Source: Craspedostauros australis
Taxonomy: Eukaryota
Direction of reading: 5' to 3'
Assembly (NCBI GenBank): GCA_030167865.1
Contig: JALAGF010004552.1
Span: forward strand, 1-57,201
DNA: 57,201 nucleotides
Shown piece by piece: positions 15,168-23,415 of the stretch. The translations under genes and the position numbers were made by a program. Every line of letters starts with the position of its first letter. Position 1 is the first letter of the stretch. Below the pieces are notes generated by a model. That model worked only from the letters and a program-made list of their open reading frames with translations. It did not search any database and was not told the origin of the DNA.

Positions 15168-15932
15168 CTACAGCTGACCCTTCGCCCGGATGATCTCCTG
15201 CAGCATGAAGTGCTTGTGCTTGGAGATGCGATGGCACGGCACGATCATGACGAGATCTCCATGACTGGCCACCTCCTTCTCGTCATGCGCCATGAACTTA
15301 CGCGTGTATCGGAGGCGCTTGCGATACTTGCGATTGAGCTTGTACCGTTCCACCGCCACGTTGACGGTCTTCTGCATCTTGGTCGACACGACGTGTCCCA
15401 CCAACGCGCCCTTGGGCAGCTTGCCGGGCGGGGAATGGATGAGATCCCAGCCCGGGATGGTGGACGTGTCGGACAGCTCCTCGTTGGACATTGCCTTGAA
15501 TTCGGGATGGATGCTGGAGAGGGGGACGTCGTCGTCCGGTGGCATGACGTACGACGTGTCCTGGAAGGACGCCATGATCTCATCGACCGTCTCCGGGTGG
15601 GCGCTCAACGCGGAACCTGTCTCTTCGTTGTCGTCGGAAGTAGCCGCCGCCGCTGGTTCGCCATCGTCATCATCATCATCATCATCATCGCCTCCATCAC
15701 CGCCGCTGGAAGAGAAGTACCTTGCGCAGGGATTGCGAGCATGATCCAGAAAGGAAGTGCGCATCCTGCATTGCGTCCAAGCCGAACTGGTGCCTCTGCT
15801 CATTGGAGAGTGCAGCATGCTTGCGTGCACAGAAACGGCAGCGCTCATCATCGTCCTTCTGCCGATCGTGGGTGCCACGATGCTGTTGGCGACCGCCAAT
15901 CGGTGGCCCATCCTCCAGGCGGCGGCCGACAT
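15168..15932 (-). CDS. MRPS17: Mitochondrial ribosomal protein uS17m with long N-terminal extension
   Basis: C-terminal S17 domain GHVVSTKMQKTVNVAVER...KFMAHDE...GDLVMIVPCHRISKHKHF. The Arg/Ser/Ala-rich N-terminus from ATG 15932 resembles a mitochondrial presequence. Confidence 0.88.
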   Translation of the reverse strand: MSAAAWRMGHRLAVANSIVAPTIGRRTMMSAAVSVHASMLHSPMSRGTSSAWTQCRMRTSFLDHARNPCARYFSSSGGDGGDDDDDDDDDGEPAAAATSDDNEETGSALSAHPETVDEIMASFQDTSYVMPPDDDVPLSSIHPEFKAMSNEELSDTSTIPGWDLIHSPPGKLPKGALVGHVVSTKMQKTVNVAVERYKLNRKYRKRLRYTRKFMAHDEKEVASHGDLVMIVPCHRISKHKHFMLQEIIRAKGQL

Positions 15933-16508
15933 GATCTTGCGAAGCTGCGTTGTGATCTCCTGACCGGTCGGTGGTGTCTGTAACTCAGTTCGTTGTTCGT
16001 CTTTCCACAACGTTTCGTTTTCACGCTTCAGCTGTCTCCTCGTTCCGCGCAATACGAACTCGGATAGAGTCGACGAATCGTCACGAAGCCAAGCCTCAGA
16101 GGATTGAGGTTCTAACGGTAGTCCAGGTACGCTGGGTATAGAGGAGTTGTAGTTGGTGGTTCTACGATGCGGATCCTCGTTGGGTTGGCATGAACGGCGG
16201 CTGCTTGATGTCTTGGCCACCATTGTCACGAGCCATCAAAATCCAGCTTTGTCGTTGATGCAACGGGCGTTGGCCAGACGTATCATCATCCAAGAAAAGA
16301 AGAGAGAAGAGTGATTCGAAGGAATCGTGTCCACAAACAAGTTTACGCGCCAAAAAGCAGAAGTTTTGGCACAGTGTTCTCTTTCGTGTACACGCATGGT
16401 CGTTGTATTTGATGTGGCTCTTTGGTATTCCAGAGTTGCATGTTGGTGGCAGATCATCAAGCATAAGCAACAACAACCACAATCGTGTCCACGGTATCGC
16501 AGATCAAC

Positions 16509-19500
16509 ATGATGGATGCCGCAACTGCAAAGACATCGAGCATCATCCTGTTCTACAAGTACCATCCACTCTCGGATGATGACGGCGTCGTGGAGCTGTA
16601 TCGATCGGCCTTGGAGGCGCTGTGCGGGTCGTTGCAGATGAAGGGCCGCATCCTCGTGGGTTGCAACGCGCAGCGATCCGAAGGCATCAACGGGACGCTG
16701 TCGGGACGCCCGGATAGAGTGGTGGCGTTCACCATGGCTCTGTCGCATCATCTGCCGACGCACAGATCCAGCCAGGACGTTGCTGCGCCATCCACGATAC
16801 CGCAAGCCGTACGTGACGACGAAGCAACCATGCAACACATGACGACATTTTGGAATGCGTGTCAGACATTTTACGAACGTGCCGACTGCGAGCCATTGCT
16901 CATGAGCACCAAGGATTTCAAATGGAGCACGGTGCCGCAGGATGCAGAGCCCGCCAATGACACGCACTCGCTTTTCCCCGATCTCAACATCAAGCTCGTC
17001 AAGGAGCTCATCGGCACGGGTGGTTTGCTTGCGGACATTTCCATCCAGGAAACGTCGAAAGGCTATCTGACCCCGGATCAGTGGCATGAGCAGTTGAATG
17101 GTTTCAGTCACCAGCAGCAGCAGGAAGAGGTTGGAGCGGCGGATACTCAAGTGGGCAGCGACGGCAACAGCAGCGACGGCAAAAGCAAAAACAACGACAC
17201 CGTACTCATCGACTGTCGCAACACGAAGGAGTACCAAATCGGCCACTTCCCCAACGCTCTCAATCCCAACACCACCACATTCCATCAATTCCCACAATGG
17301 GTCAAGGATCATCAGCATTCCCTTCAAGGCAAGAAGGTCCTCATGTACTGCACCGGCGGCATCCGCTGCGAGAAGGCGTCGGCCTACATTCGCAACACGG
17401 TGCCCGACGTCCAAGCGGTCTCCCATCTGCAAGGTGGCATCCACAAATACCTCGAGCGATACGGATCCAAAGGCCTTTGGCAGGGGAAGAACTTCGTCTT
17501 TGATGGTCGTGGAGCGGCGACTGCCGATGCGACGTACAAGTCGAGTGTTCCGTATAGCATGCCATCCACGAGTAATGCACCGTCGGTGGAGCCAACGAAT
17601 GGTAATGCCAGTGGAGCTGTAACCAGCAGCGACACCACCGCCAACAGCAGCAACAACAATGACAGCAACACGGACGAACTCGTCGTCGGCCAATGCACCT
17701 ACTGTTCTGCGCCCTACGATTCATTCGACCCGCGTTGTGTGTGCACGGTCTGCCGCGAACCCATCCTCGTCTGCAAGTCCTGCCAATCCAACCTCACGGA
17801 GTTCCACTGCGACGCGCACACCGCCTTGCGGGAGTGCTACTTCACACGGTTGGAACCATTCTCGGTGCAGCAGTTGCAACGTCAGCAGGCACAGCTGCAG
17901 CATCTCATGGCGCAGATCGCGGTCGGCAAAAAGTTCAAGCAGCGTCGCAAGACGATGCAACGGCAGATTCAAAAGATCGTGGATCGGCTGGAGGAGTTGA
18001 AACAAATGGAAAAAGATGGCGTTGCACCCATCATGACCAAATCTCAAGTCGACTGTCGCAATTGCGGCGAAGTATCCTGCGATGGACGATGCTGGGGATT
18101 CCTTGGATTGGGGCGGAAACAGAAGCTGGAGGCGTCTGCTTCAGCTGCGGCAAGCAGCGATTTGGAACAAGCAAATGGGAATGCAAATCACAACGGTCAC
18201 AATGCCCATCACCAACACAGGAGCGCCTCACCAACGTCGACTGTGTCCACCCAGACGCAACCGCAAATACAGACGAACAGACCAAAGAAGCAAAATGGAA
18301 ACAATCAGCATCTGCGTGAAAGGAAGGAGAGGGAGCGGCAGCAAGCGATTCAGGAAATCGTGGATCTGGGTTTGTGCAAGCCATCATCGATGCATCGGGA
18401 TCCAAACACGGGAATCCGGGTTCCACCGCCATGCACTCGCGTCGTGTCCACCAGGACCAAGGGCAAATGGTGCGGGCGATCGGTGCTGCATGTCATCCGA
18501 GAGCAGTTCCATGACTTGATGAAGCTGGATGAGCTGGTGGACATCTTGAGACTTGGATTGCTGCGCGTCAACGATATGAAAATCACGTCCATCGATCAGG
18601 CAGAGACGACAAAGCTCAAGAACATGGACGTCCTCAGCCGCTTCGTGCACTGGCATGAACCGCCTGTGCATATCCCGCGCAGCATTATCCAGACGCAGAA
18701 GGTGCCGCTGCCGCAAGCCGTCATCGACGAACATCAAGTCGCTGCGGACGATGCGACGATCTACGTCTGCAACAAACCATCGACGGTCCCGGCGCATCCT
18801 GCCGGCACCTACTTCTCCAATTCGCTCACTTCCATGGTGGAAGGTATTCACAATCTGCGGCCGAAGGATCTGATTCCATGCCACAGAATTGACCGAGTCA
18901 CCAGCGGTCTGACCCTGTGCTGCACGAACGTTCAGGTTGCGCGGCTCGTGCAGAGCCGGATCGATGAAGGGGCGGTGCAAAAGCTGTACCTCGCAAAGGT
19001 CAACGGTCTCTTCCCGCATTCTTCAAACGCCATGACGGATGCTTCGCTACCCGCCTGCACGGGTGTGTCCAACTGGCTGTGGCGAAGGGACACCACGTTG
19101 GAAGTGCACGGTCCCATCGAAACAGTCGACCCTGCCAATGGCATTCGCAAAATCACATCCAAGGGCAAACCCGCCGCAAGTATGTTTCGATTGATTGCTC
19201 ATGATACGGGCGATGGGACGTCCATCATCTTGTGCCGACCGCTGACAGGACGCAGCCATCAATTGCGCGTCCACTTGCAGTGGCTGGGACATCCGATCAT
19301 CATGGACAGCCAATATGACGGACCTGGTGATGCCCCCAACAAGGATGGACCGGCAGCATTAGAGGCGTCGACGAAACTGGGTCCATCGTGCGAAGCATCC
19401 AGCAGTTCTGTATCGCCTGACGACGTTGCTGCTGTCCGCACAGTGTGCAAATGCTGTACAAAGTCAGTATCCGATGCCTTTTCGCCGGCCCAGCTCCTGC

Positions 19501-19778
19501 AGGGTGGACATGCGATCTGTTTACATGCCTACAGGTATCGCATCCCGTTCATCCCCAAGAGGAGCAAAAAGAAGAAGAAGAAAAAGCGCAAGATGATGGA
19601 TGAGATCGATACGAACGCGGCGAATGTATTGGTACAAGGAGGGGGCGAAGTGGAATCAGAGCTGAAATCTACCGACCAAGCGAATCATGATATCATCATT
19701 GGCTCTGTCGATGTCCACGTCGATTTGCCAGAGTGGGCCTGCGATGTGAACTCGTCACAACTGACCTGGCTTGAATGA
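16509..19778 (+). CDS. Fusion protein: TrhO/TSTD2-type (UPF0176) rhodanese plus RluA-family pseudouridine synthase
   Basis: The N-half has ILFYKY, GRILV...EGINGTLSG, DCRNTKEYQIGHF, MYCTGGIRCEKAS, HLQGGIHKY, GKNFVFDGR and a Cys-rich tail. The C-half has NKPSTVPAHP, HRIDRVTSGL (catalytic Asp), LTGRSHQLRVH, GHPI-x2-D-x2-Y and CLHAY. Both halves lie in one uninterrupted ORF of ~1089 aa. Confidence 0.92.
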   Translation: MMDAATAKTSSIILFYKYHPLSDDDGVVELYRSALEALCGSLQMKGRILVGCNAQRSEGINGTLSGRPDRVVAFTMALSHHLPTHRSSQDVAAPSTIPQAVRDDEATMQHMTTFWNACQTFYERADCEPLLMSTKDFKWSTVPQDAEPANDTHSLFPDLNIKLVKELIGTGGLLADISIQETSKGYLTPDQWHEQLNGFSHQQQQEEVGAADTQVGSDGNSSDGKSKNNDTVLIDCRNTKEYQIGHFPNALNPNTTTFHQFPQWVKDHQHSLQGKKVLMYCTGGIRCEKASAYIRNTVPDVQAVSHLQGGIHKYLERYGSKGLWQGKNFVFDGRGAATADATYKSSVPYSMPSTSNAPSVEPTNGNASGAVTSSDTTANSSNNNDSNTDELVVGQCTYCSAPYDSFDPRCVCTVCREPILVCKSCQSNLTEFHCDAHTALRECYFTRLEPFSVQQLQRQQAQLQHLMAQIAVGKKFKQRRKTMQRQIQKIVDRLEELKQMEKDGVAPIMTKSQVDCRNCGEVSCDGRCWGFLGLGRKQKLEASASAAASSDLEQANGNANHNGHNAHHQHRSASPTSTVSTQTQPQIQTNRPKKQNGNNQHLRERKERERQQAIQEIVDLGLCKPSSMHRDPNTGIRVPPPCTRVVSTRTKGKWCGRSVLHVIREQFHDLMKLDELVDILRLGLLRVNDMKITSIDQAETTKLKNMDVLSRFVHWHEPPVHIPRSIIQTQKVPLPQAVIDEHQVAADDATIYVCNKPSTVPAHPAGTYFSNSLTSMVEGIHNLRPKDLIPCHRIDRVTSGLTLCCTNVQVARLVQSRIDEGAVQKLYLAKVNGLFPHSSNAMTDASLPACTGVSNWLWRRDTTLEVHGPIETVDPANGIRKITSKGKPAASMFRLIAHDTGDGTSIILCRPLTGRSHQLRVHLQWLGHPIIMDSQYDGPGDAPNKDGPAALEASTKLGPSCEASSSSVSPDDVAAVRTVCKCCTKSVSDAFSPAQLLQGGHAICLHAYRYRIPFIPKRSKKKKKKKRKMMDEIDTNAANVLVQGGGEVESELKSTDQANHDIIIGSVDVHVDLPEWACDVNSSQLTWLE

Positions 19779-20081: not shown

Positions 20082-21941
20082 CTAGAGGTCACCGTAGAGC
20101 ACCACGACGCTCGCAATGGCACTCACAAGGGACGCAGCGATTGCGAAGGCCATGGATCGGACACTGGTGCCGGATGTTGGTTGCATGCTGGGCGGTTCAG
20201 ACACCAGTTGAGTGGGAGCAGCTGTCGCATCAGCAGTCGGCTTGTCCGTCGGTGTATCCGTGGGTGCATCGCTTGCCTTGGTTGTAGGTGCATCACTTGC
20301 CTTGATGGTTGGCGCATCTGTGGGTGCATCCGTTGGGGATGGGGTTGTGGGAGCATTTGATGTGGTGTTGGGGAGCGGCACGCCCAGCTCCTCCAGGGCC
20401 GCAGCGATCCAGGAGTCTTCGCCACTATTGCGTTCCTCCAACGCAAGCAACTCCGTCTCGATGGTCACGTGCGGCGGGAGTCCGACAATCTCGTGCATAG
20501 TTCCATTCGTGTCTCTGTAAACCTCGTTCGACAGCGTCACCTGGTACCCATTGTCCAACTTCTTCCCCAGCATGTCGGAGAATGCGCCGTGGGTGTTGTG
20601 CCCCATGACGGTCACGAACGGCAGCTCCTTCATCGCGAGGGTGAACACTTCTCCCGCGCTGACGGTCGATTCGCTGGCGAGAACAACGACGCGTCCCGAG
20701 AACGTGAGCTCAGGATGATTGAAATTCTCGATGATCACATCGTATGACTCCGTGAAGGTGGAGATGGTCTGGTCGCCTGCTGGTGCCATTTTGGCCTGCT
20801 TCGACATGGCAAAATAGTCCTCGTTTGCGAACAATGCCGCTAGGAAAACGGAGACGGAATCCGTGCCACCGGTGTTGAGGCGCACATCAAAGATGACGCT
20901 GTCCACATCGTTGAATGCCTTCATTGCATTGAAGAGCTCTTCTTCTGCTGCGTTCGTGTCTTCGGGACTCATGCTGAACATGAACATGTAGCCTACGTTG
21001 GCATGGCGGAGCTTGCCCCAAAGGATGTGATCAAAATCTCCACGCAGCCCATCGTCATCCATGTAACTGGAGACGATATTGAGGAACCTTCCGAGCTGCT
21101 GAACGATGTACGTATCCACAGTCGGCGCGACTGAGGTAGACGCGACTTGGACTTGCGCCTCCCATTCCTCCGCCAACAGTGCTTGGAATGTGATGAGTTT
21201 CGTCAAGATGGACCCATCTCTTCCTGGGATTGCGATGGTGACGTGGATATCATCCACCGCTTGCAGCAGTTCCAATGCGACCTCGAAGAAGGAGAGGTCG
21301 GAATCAGGATCCTGCAGCTCCTCCCGAGCGGCAACCACCATGGCTTCCCAATCCAAATCACGCTCCTCAAAGAACGCGAAATGCTCGCGGAAGTTCGCCG
21401 CCAGGATATCCAAGCTACGTAGATCATCTTCCACGTAGCCTTCATCTCCTACGGTGGGCGTGAGCCCAACTGATCCGCACACTCCGGGCAATGCATCCTG
21501 CTTGTCAAAGATGATCGGTGCCAAGCCGTCGATGTTGAATTCCATGGTTGTTGCGTCGAGCAGATCGTACCCGTCGCTGCCATCCAAGGCGAACATGTCC
21601 TCATCCAAGATGCAGCTGGTGGCGGTGAGCTGGAGTTCGATGAGGAACTCCGGGTCCGACACGAAGACGATGCCGTATCCACGCGAAAGCCAAATGCCCT
21701 GCGGGACGATCATCGGATCAGTGCCCTGCATTTGACGTTGGTTGGAACGGGTGCTGCTGGTGCGCCGATGGGAGATGGATTTACCACGGCGGGCATCATT
21801 GGCCCACTTCTGCAAGGATGCCGTGAGCGGGTCCGATGATGGGCCTCGGAGATGGGCGCCGGTTGAGGTTGCGGTTGGAGTGCAGGCCTGAAGGTTGGCC
21901 ATCATGGAGATGAATGCGAGAGCTGCTGATGCGAAAATCAT
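20082..21941 (-). CDS. Secreted S41-family (tricorn C1 + S41) serine peptidase with PT linker and probable GPI signal
   Basis: Signal-like start MIFASAALAFISMMA at 21941. Motifs are NFREHFAFF...DW, DIHV, IFDVRLNTGG, TVSAGEVF (catalytic Ser), THGAFSD, LSNEVY and EIVGLPP. A PTDAPT linker is followed by a hydrophobic C-terminus. No intron is evident. Confidence 0.88.
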   Translation of the reverse strand: MIFASAALAFISMMANLQACTPTATSTGAHLRGPSSDPLTASLQKWANDARRGKSISHRRTSSTRSNQRQMQGTDPMIVPQGIWLSRGYGIVFVSDPEFLIELQLTATSCILDEDMFALDGSDGYDLLDATTMEFNIDGLAPIIFDKQDALPGVCGSVGLTPTVGDEGYVEDDLRSLDILAANFREHFAFFEERDLDWEAMVVAAREELQDPDSDLSFFEVALELLQAVDDIHVTIAIPGRDGSILTKLITFQALLAEEWEAQVQVASTSVAPTVDTYIVQQLGRFLNIVSSYMDDDGLRGDFDHILWGKLRHANVGYMFMFSMSPEDTNAAEEELFNAMKAFNDVDSVIFDVRLNTGGTDSVSVFLAALFANEDYFAMSKQAKMAPAGDQTISTFTESYDVIIENFNHPELTFSGRVVVLASESTVSAGEVFTLAMKELPFVTVMGHNTHGAFSDMLGKKLDNGYQVTLSNEVYRDTNGTMHEIVGLPPHVTIETELLALEERNSGEDSWIAAALEELGVPLPNTTSNAPTTPSPTDAPTDAPTIKASDAPTTKASDAPTDTPTDKPTADATAAPTQLVSEPPSMQPTSGTSVRSMAFAIAASLVSAIASVVVLYGDL

Positions 21942-23415
21942 GGTGGCTTGGGTCTTTGTTTTTGTGTTTGGTTGGTGATATAATAGAATAGTTGTTAAGG
22001 CAATGCTTTGGATGTGAACTATATTGAACTTGGAGTGCTTGTTGGTGTTTTGATTGTGTGCTGTGTTGGTGTTGTTTTTGCTGTTTGTTGAAATTGTGAG
22101 CAGATGAACTCCCATCTCCATCCGACGCATGACGAGGAACGCATGGACCGTGCTCCTCGTCATCAATACGCGTACGAGCACCATACGCGTCCCATACTCG
22201 TACCATACCTGTACTATACACGCAGCACAGCGTTCATCGCCCACAAACCAAGGTGCCCAGAGCAAGCAGTACCATAGTTGTATGGCGGAGACTACGAGCC
22301 TTCATGTGATCGGTCACATCCTCCCTAGCTTCCACTTGGTTCTTGGATAGCGAAGCATGATCCGACGATCTTCTTCAGGATGCATCGTGAACATTCCCAG
22401 ACGCGGGCCTGGCATGCGGCGTCGGTTTGATCGGTACCGTCTACTTTTGGCGCGGCGGTTTGATCGTCAACGAAATGATCAATTGGCTCTTGTTTGCAAC
22501 GAAATTGTGAAGGGCCGACCATCACCCAACCTGAAAATTGATCGCTCGAATCGCATGGAAGGCTCAGCATGCTATTGTGATGTGAAGTGAAGTGCTGCCA
22601 TGGGAGATCTTTGTGGATCGTGCTCCTTACCAAAAGCTCCAACGTGACTCGTGGTGATCTTCGTCGAGGTTCATCTGGGAGCTTGCTTCTTGTTCGGCCA
22701 TGTTCTCGCACAATCTTCGGTCCAAAAGGCGCGTGTCTTGTGTTGGCGGTCAACCCATGGCTTCGTGATCGCAAATGCAGGACACTGGCAGCAGCCAACG
22801 AAATGCCGAGCATCTTGCGACACGATCCAGAGCGCGATCTCTTGTCGCATGATATAATACTCGGGAAGGTCGATCTTGATCTGCGTACATTCGCGTCTGC
22901 ATGGAGAGGCATCGTCTGCCGTGTTGTGTCGCGGTGACTCTGGCTTCGGTTCCTGACGATGAACACATCAAAACAAAGAACAGAGGCGAACATCGATGAA
23001 CCAATTATGACAATAGGAGGTTATTTGGCGGTTACACCACACAGTTTAAAAGTCCAATGTCCGTATGATTCGCGAGGGCGGGAAATGAAAGCATTGTCCC
23101 AAATGGGGACATGATGCCAAACTCGGCGAAAAACACGATCGCAGGGCGAAAAACGACGAGGAACAGTCAACCCGAACAAAACAAACGAGGACTTTCGCCA
23201 TCATCAGCACGTTCGACGTTCTGGACGACTGTGCCAATCCTCGCACTCGTGCTGATAGCTTGGCAGCATAGTACGATACTGTACGATCTAAGGCAAACAA
23301 GGCAGCGCCATCAGCGTTGTGAAAGCACTGCCATCTTCACAGTTTCACAACAGTTTCACAACAGTTTCGCCGCATGCGAGATGCAACGTGCGACTGGAAC
23401 AGATTTGAAAGCGCA

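Follow-up and report, generated by a model that had tools for sequence, protein, structure and literature searches.

An intact gene joining two RNA-modification modules

The 57,201 nucleotides of Craspedostauros australis DNA analysed here (contig JALAGF010004552.1 of assembly GCA_030167865.1, read on its forward strand; this whole stretch is referred to as the window) carry a gene that joins a homologue of the tRNA hydroxylase TrhO to a pseudouridine synthase of the RluA family. Its open frame runs on the plus strand from a GTG at 16485 to 19778 (1097 residues), and the first ATG, at 16509, opens a stop-free protein of 1089 residues (P0001). The original prediction, made from the letters of the window, had described a single uninterrupted fusion frame. 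This is confirmed at 16509-19778 (+), with 1089 codons and four Pfam domains over their gathering scores, and the motif positions given there were exact: Y280 of YCTGGIRCE lies at nucleotide 17346 and H792 of HRID at nucleotide 18882. The remaining motifs fall at residues 516-531 (CRNC...CWGF), 913-922 (TGRSHQLRVH), 1005-1007 (LHA) and 1016-1027 (a run of lysines). Conservation is given below over an alignment of 35 fused sequences, the query and 34 homologues (alignment A1), and the parts of the gene, all on the plus strand, are as follows.

16509..19778 (+): whole coding sequence, 1089 codons plus stop; an intron is not needed, and the sequence is colinear with the 34 homologues
16539..16766 (+): UPF0176_N (acylphosphatase-like) domain of the TrhO module, residues 11-86 (PF17773, 37.4 bits)
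16992..16994 (+): Lys162, counterpart of E. coli TrhO K112 by pairwise alignment with an Enterobacter TrhO (locus L053)
17187..17453 (+): Rhodanese domain, residues 227-315 (PF00581, 42.2 bits)
17349..17366 (+): active-site loop C281-T-G-G-I-R286 (CTGGIR), with invariant residues in the alignment of 35
17481..17843 (+): Rhodanese_C region (PF12368, residues 325-435, 29.0 bits), made up of a disordered insert (331-389) and then a Cys/His-rich, zinc-ribbon-like segment (390-445)
17844..18113 (+): eukaryote-specific TSTD2-type C-terminal extension, with two long helices (453-502, from the AlphaFold2 model) and a conserved CRNCG-x3-C-x3-CWGF knuckle (516-531)
18114..18308 (+): true inter-module linker, residues 536-600, of low complexity (majority fraction 0.17, 44% gaps)
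18309..18743 (+): N-terminal region of the synthase module, residues 601-745, with a helix, a G-I-R-V-P...K-G-K-W-x-G element, an S4-like part and HWHEPPV, a region that synthase relatives have in common with the fused homologues
18744..19553 (+): RluA-family catalytic domain with a CxxC-bearing insert, residues 746-1015 (PF00849, 75.5 bits over 751-924)
18882..18893 (+): HRID motif with the catalytic Asp795, aligned to HRLD of RluC
19554..19694 (+): variable basic-then-acidic insert including the Lys run, residues 1016-1062, with a low predicted local distance difference test (pLDDT) score and low conservation
19695..19778 (+): conserved C-terminal strand and L-P-x-W-A tail of the synthase module, with invariant P and W, plus the stop codon

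For an AlphaFold2 model built on the 35 homologues, the mean pLDDT is 77.5 and the predicted template modelling (pTM) score 0.50, and both modules are predicted with confidence. The pLDDT falls below 50 at residues 331-389, 550-597 and 1022-1059, and stands at about 83-90 across the ribbon at 390-445. The poly-Lys tail that had been proposed to resemble a nuclear localization signal lies in the insert that holds the third of these stretches. The lysine run is present but not conserved: across residues 1016-1062 the majority fraction is 0.11 and gaps make up 63%, and a basic cluster stands at the position of the run in only 13 of the 35 aligned homologues. At the other end of the protein, the N-terminal leaders are 4-71 residues long, polar or acidic, and unconserved (25 of the 35 sequences, in which the anchor motif was found). 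Because these leaders are so short, so polar and so variable, they suggest a cytosolic or nuclear protein without a targeting leader. One putative RNA run, of guessed type (share 0.12), yielded a single 567-nt contig over 19418-19900, which is uninformative on transcript structure.

The fused architecture is conserved in diatoms and beyond

A search for relatives of fused length returned 182 sequences at E ≤0.001, and the counts that follow are taken from the 120 that were listed. All 120 carry PseudoU_synth_2, 96 of them also carry UPF0176_N, and 119 have at least one family of the TrhO module, the sole exception being a protein of 639 residues (P0089). Automatic names already cover both halves, as in 'predicted sulfurtransferase/23S rRNA-/tRNA-specific pseudouridylate synthase'. 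The organism names among the listed relatives are diatoms throughout, pennate and centric, and the whole architecture is found in transcript assemblies (P0009, P0058 and, from Mucochytrium, P0398). Cluster look-ups with Pfam assignments place the fusion outside the diatoms too, in Triparma laevis (Bolidophyceae) and in transcripts of the labyrinthulomycete Mucochytrium quahogii, so that the diatom setting first proposed holds for the presence of the fusion and fails as a restriction. One fused homologue, P0025 of Nitzschia sp. Nitz4 (1586 residues), also carries PF00211 (adenylate/guanylate cyclase) and is probably a merged gene model.

Metagenome loci give the same picture, with both active-site motifs in one open frame at four of five. 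The frame of locus L082 is single and uninterrupted over 1040 residues; at L083, L084 and L085 the TrhO loop motif and HRxD share one open frame that breaks only later, inside the synthase half; and L086 is truncated by the contig start with its linker open. The break in L083-L085 falls at a similar place each time, between HRxD and GRxHQxR, and looks like an intron; the gene in the window and L082 are unbroken there. Conservation follows the modules, with majority fractions of 0.57 in the TrhO core, 0.67 in the zinc ribbon and 0.61 in the synthase core, against the low value of the linker. Gene and architecture alike are genuine, intact and conserved.

The N-terminal half is a TrhO homologue of eukaryotic TSTD2-like type

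The N-terminal half passes the NCBIfam TrhO equivalog (NF001133) with 171.4 bits against a cut-off of 170, while generic rhodanese and MoeB/GlpE-type models score much lower (18.5-38.3 bits). When the protein was compared with solved structures by phmmer, the top matches were TrhO entries (9j5o, 2.8e-29; 4f67, 8.3e-25), followed by RluC, RluA, RPUSD1, RPUSD4 and RluD. Foldseek on the predicted model likewise returned 4f67 (E 2.7e-16; target-normalized template modelling score, TM-score, 0.67) and 9j5o_A (E 2.0e-15; 0.68), of which 9j5o is by its title B. subtilis TrhO with tRNA-Ala. Bacterial TrhO is described as an O2-dependent hydroxylase of tRNA U34 (PMC6599085), and residues C200, T201, G203, R205 and K112 are reported there and in PMC10135228 as needed or important for the formation of 5-hydroxyuridine (ho5U) by the E. 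coli enzyme. In the alignment with Enterobacter TrhO, the first four correspond to C281, T282, G284 and R286, and K112 to K162. C281, T282, G283, G284 and R286 do not vary in any of the 35 sequences, and K162 is at least 90% conserved. By alignment, all catalytic residues known from bacterial TrhO are retained. Also invariant are L14, F15, Y16, E58, G59, N61, G62 and T63 of the UPF0176_N domain (35/35) and C396, C399, C412, C415, C422, C425, H433, C434 and H437 of the C-terminal ribbon.

The layout of UPF0176_N, rhodanese and Cys-rich C-terminus is common to the diatom protein and to bacterial TrhO (E. coli YceA and B. subtilis YbfQ; structures 4f67 and 9j5o), as are the CTGGIR loop, the counterpart of K112 and the fold; identity in the fold alignment is about 20-24%. 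The diatom protein differs from the bacterial enzymes in the 59-residue disordered insert at 331-389, in being joined to a synthase, and in two extra long helices followed by the CRxC...CWGF knuckle, which is absent from nine of nine bacterial sequences. The best prokaryotic match to the hydroxylase half is a copy at locus L001 (28% identity over query residues 12-425); in the phylum of that locus, represented by 261 genomes of 0.5-2.4 Mb (G001-G261), UPF0176_N occurs in 183 genomes as a stand-alone TrhO N-domain.

The Cys knuckle had originally been read as part of a coiled, Cys-bearing linker. That assignment does not hold: of 16 eukaryotic TSTD2-like rows with a stand-alone label, 14 have the motif C-R-x-C...C-x-G-x-C-W-G, against none of nine bacterial TrhO rows, which assigns it to a TSTD2-type C-terminus. 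The two eukaryotic rows without it are short partial sequences, gapped at this place, and two of the 14 positive rows (P0393 and P0400) are fused genes with broken models that retain the synthase N-terminus. The knuckle is at least 90% conserved among the fused sequences, and in the representative search stand-alone TSTD2-like relatives align to the query until about residue 545. These stand-alone proteins (diatom P0415 and P0431, Amorphochlora, Fabomonas and the Symbiodinium 'Tstd2') have the same domains, C-terminal helices and Cys knuckle at about 31-39% identity. The link to human TSTD2 itself runs only through this partial Symbiodinium entry, so named by its source. Inside its rhodanese domain, P0393 (1011 residues, from an ENA contig of 406,945 bases) further contains tandem repeats rich in Cys and Pro, about 330 residues in all, and its translation is meaningless past the synthase N-terminus, oddities that are likely unspliced introns in a G+C-rich relative.

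In a tree of the hydroxylase half, the 34 eukaryotic rows stand apart from the nine bacterial rows (support 93). Within them, the diatom, Triparma and related fused rows form one clade (100 for 18 rows), the Mucochytrium type a second (100) and the stand-alone diatom paralogue of Seminavis, Cylindrotheca fusiformis and others a third (99), so that the fused copies lie in clades of their own, outside that of the stand-alone diatom paralogue. The comparison supports a hydroxylase half of eukaryotic TSTD2-like type, as opposed to a recent bacterial import.

The C-terminal half groups with RPUSD2, Pus8 and Pus9

The synthase half retains the signature of its family over alignment A1: H792, R793 and D795 of HRID are invariant in 35 of 35 sequences, as are R915, H917, Q918, R920, L1005 and H1006, together with R644, K651 and W654 in the N-terminal region and P1074 and W1076 in the tail. 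On the predicted model, Foldseek lists RluD, RluC and RluA after TrhO, with target-normalized TM-scores of 0.65-0.70 for RluC and RluA (RluA alone, 0.66-0.70). Closer relatives are eukaryotic. RPUSD2 of animals and Pus8/Rib2 and Pus9 of fungi are 28-33% identical to the synthase half over 78-100% of its length, and share with it K-x-R-W-x-G, H-x-H-E-P, HRxD, GRxHQxRVH, the CxxC insert, LHA and L-P-x-W-A. In a second alignment (A2), of the synthase half with fungal Pus9-like, RIB2, RPUSD2, Saprolegnia and Pelomyxa proteins, P42, K52, W55, H115, H117 and E118 and the CxxC cysteines C381 and C384 (A2 numbering) are invariant, and the proline and tryptophan of the tail are invariant in the stand-alone RPUSD2/Pus9-type proteins as well. 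What sets the diatom synthase apart from these relatives is its place behind a TSTD2-like protein and the variable basic/acidic insert before its last strand; it also goes without the deaminase domain of Rib2.

A tree of the synthase half separates 29 eukaryotic rows from eight bacterial-type RluA rows (support 99), and the two fused clades of the hydroxylase tree reappear in it. Taken together, these sequence comparisons support placing the synthase half in the eukaryotic RPUSD2/Pus8/Pus9 group. A tree with all fused hydroxylase halves in one clade withstood an approximately unbiased (AU) test (p-AU 0.5), a result that does not by itself show a single origin; one fusion event in stramenopiles and two are both possible. 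Saprolegnia has a synthase of the same type, unfused.

The sites known for this group are tRNA positions 31/32 and, in humans, also 34. Human RPUSD2 is reported to form pseudouridine at positions 31/32 of both cytosolic and mitochondrial tRNAs and, in tRNA-Ile-TAT, at position 34 (PMC12716993), and the mitochondrial 31/32 sites also appear in a second study (PMC13022450). Yeast Pus6, Pus8 and Pus9 are assigned to pseudouridine 31/32 (PMC12716993).

A candidate bifunctional modifier of the tRNA anticodon loop

We interpret the protein as a bifunctional tRNA modifier in which a TSTD2-like TrhO homologue and an RPUSD2/Pus8/Pus9-like synthase, derived from two whole eukaryotic proteins, have been brought into a single nuclear gene, and we give this interpretation a probability of about 0.5. 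It draws on the closest characterized relatives of the two halves, which act at most four nucleotides apart. Residues 1 to about 535, the TSTD2-like part, would be tethered to the synthase at about 600-1089 through a disordered linker some 65 residues long. By analogy with its human and yeast relatives, the synthase half would isomerize U31/U32, and possibly U34, of tRNAs, and the hydroxylase half may carry out an O2-dependent C5 hydroxylation within the anticodon loop that holds these positions, on a uridine that is most likely U34, the bacterial target. Since each parent enzyme has been solved alone with an anticodon arm (by the titles of complexes 2i82 and 9j5o), and since the tether is long and disordered, the modules would probably act in turn on a tRNA kept close by the tether and not simultaneously. 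The original prediction had taken the fusion to mean that the TSTD2 family acts on RNA; fusion with an RPUSD2/Pus8/Pus9-type synthase does link the family to the tRNA anticodon arm, where it may act.

Several observations weigh against this interpretation. The TrhO equivalog is passed by a narrow margin (171.4 against 170), and the bacterial rluA_subfam model TIGR00005 gives 136.4 bits, below its cut-off of 192.7; the latter weighs little against membership of the RluA family because the model was built for bacterial annotation. At a pTM of 0.50, the mutual placement of the modules is not fixed by the full-length model. A docking prediction of residues 8-531 against residues 615-1089 gave no answer (score 0.01 against a mark of 0.34, controls not folded, our own alignment not used) and is evidence neither way. 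The fusion is dispensable elsewhere, as human RPUSD2, yeast Pus8/9 and the Saprolegnia synthase stand alone, and diatoms keep a separate stand-alone TSTD2-like paralogue. Some database frames hold one half only: P0129 (452 residues, flagged complete) starts in the linker, while P0242 and P0245 cover the other half, P0245 ending just within the synthase N-terminus. These look like exon pieces or truncated transcripts, and a split form in some taxa is possible. In the parts of the literature consulted, a 2023 review gives TSTD2 no known function (PMC10135228), and 5-hydroxyuridine-type (xo5U) modification in eukaryotes is only suggested, from the eukaryotic homologues (PMC6599085).

The strongest alternative, which we consider clearly less probable, is that both modules are active on different RNAs or sites and that the fusion gives them equal dosage and a shared location. 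The synthase could, for example, modify tRNA 31/32 and the TSTD2-like module another uridine or cytidine in tRNA, rRNA or mRNA, a division of labour that the long, disordered and poorly conserved tether would allow and for which the full-length model, with no defined module packing, leaves room. The substrates of eukaryotic TSTD2 are described as not established (PMC10135228), and the eukaryote-specific C-terminal helices and Cys knuckle could shift specificity away from that of bacterial TrhO. Against such a division stands the anticodon loop shared by the nearest characterized relatives of both halves (PMC6599085, PMC12716993); moreover, the same pair of families recurs in bacterial Atlas clusters (a lead only), which a shared substrate would explain more easily.

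It is improbable, in our judgement, that the TrhO-like module is no hydroxylase and instead serves the synthase as an RNA-binding, redox/oxygen-sensing or sulfur-carrying accessory. The rhodanese fold does perform persulfide chemistry in other tRNA pathways (PMC6599085), database names speak of a sulfurtransferase, and the TrhO mechanism is described as unresolved (PMC10135228). Against this, the TrhO residue set is kept as a whole over the 35 sequences (K162, C281, T282, G284 and R286) and not the cysteine alone, and the TrhO equivalog passes its cut-off where the general rhodanese and MoeB/GlpE-type models fall far short. An artefact, whether adjacent genes sharing one frame by chance or a chimeric assembly, could draw on the half-length database frames but is very improbable indeed given the fused order in 96 of the 120 listed relatives and in transcript assemblies, the single open frame across both active sites at four of five independent metagenome loci, and the matching trees of the two halves.

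Related fusions and what they would mean

Two further kinds of fusion bear on the bifunctional interpretation. The first is in bacteria: Planctomycetota clusters in the Atlas, of 605-615 residues, have the same three Pfam families as the diatom fusion, a lead taken from the cluster description. By that description a single polypeptide combines the two enzyme families, and it is too short for the eukaryote-specific extensions. Because both stramenopile halves branch with eukaryotic proteins and the bacterial ones are short, the stramenopile fusion is likely to be separate in origin from the bacterial one. A contig scan with two TrhO peptide patterns gave no fused locus among its best 80, all of which match query residues 8-429 only. 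Among the best 150 of 17,963 matches (E ≤0.001) in the representative search, we saw eukaryote-type fused, half-length and stand-alone TSTD2-like proteins, and no short fusion of bacterial size was evident. In the phylum of G001 (261 small genomes), the listed frames are mostly of 300-350 residues, 529 at most, with no fusion among them.

The second kind joins TrhO to TrmR. Fusions of yceA and trmR in Phytophthora sojae, P. ramorum and Phaeodactylum tricornutum were used as a Rosetta-stone clue to the function of TrhO (Sakai 2019, PMC6599085). They too are stramenopile and pair a TrhO homologue with an enzyme of the tRNA anticodon loop; their partner is the ho5U methyltransferase, whereas that in Craspedostauros australis is a pseudouridine synthase. 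A methyltransferase domain was absent from the fused and stand-alone proteins that we scanned, including seven long stand-alone paralogues. Our literature search found no publication on the TrhO-synthase architecture or on TSTD2 activity, and the supplementary distribution tables of PMC6599085 may list such fusions. The protein is built from two known kinds of enzyme, and for the fusion itself we found no description in print.

A bolder proposal, which we regard as tentative and rather doubtful, is that the two families were joined at least twice independently, as TSTD2 with RPUSD2 in stramenopiles and again in Planctomycetes, because formation of pseudouridine 31/32 is mechanistically tied, on the same tRNAs, to hydroxylation of U34 at C5, one mark setting the recognition or the order of the other. 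If this coupling were true, eukaryotic TSTD2 proteins would be tRNA wobble-uridine hydroxylases, and eukaryotic cytosolic tRNAs would carry a 5-hydroxyuridine-derived wobble mark, so far undetected. If the bacterial fusions are independent, their recurrence would favour real cross-talk between two marks of the anticodon loop; interplay among human pseudouridine synthases has been described recently (PMC13022450). The conserved fusion puts a TSTD2-type family physically at the tRNA anticodon loop, beside a writer of pseudouridine 31/32/34, and it offers a testable handle on the role of TSTD2: transformable diatoms, one gene and two point mutants. Should the modules merely share a polypeptide, this would be an ordinary domain fusion of two housekeeping enzymes.

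Neighbouring frames

On the upstream side lies a divergent neighbour at 15168-16229 (-), a frame of 353 residues with Ribosomal_S17 (PF00366, 80.8 bits) at residues 278-344 and, ahead of this domain, a long N-terminal extension containing a run of aspartates; it may be an organellar S17. Downstream, on the opposite strand at 20082-22265 (-), a 727-residue frame carries a Peptidase_S41 domain (78.4 bits); it also includes a repeat region rich in Thr, Pro and Ala, and its C-terminal end is hydrophobic. An antisense open frame of 485 residues at 16236-17693 (-) overlaps the first third of the fused gene and is probably a by-product of its G+C-rich coding strand.

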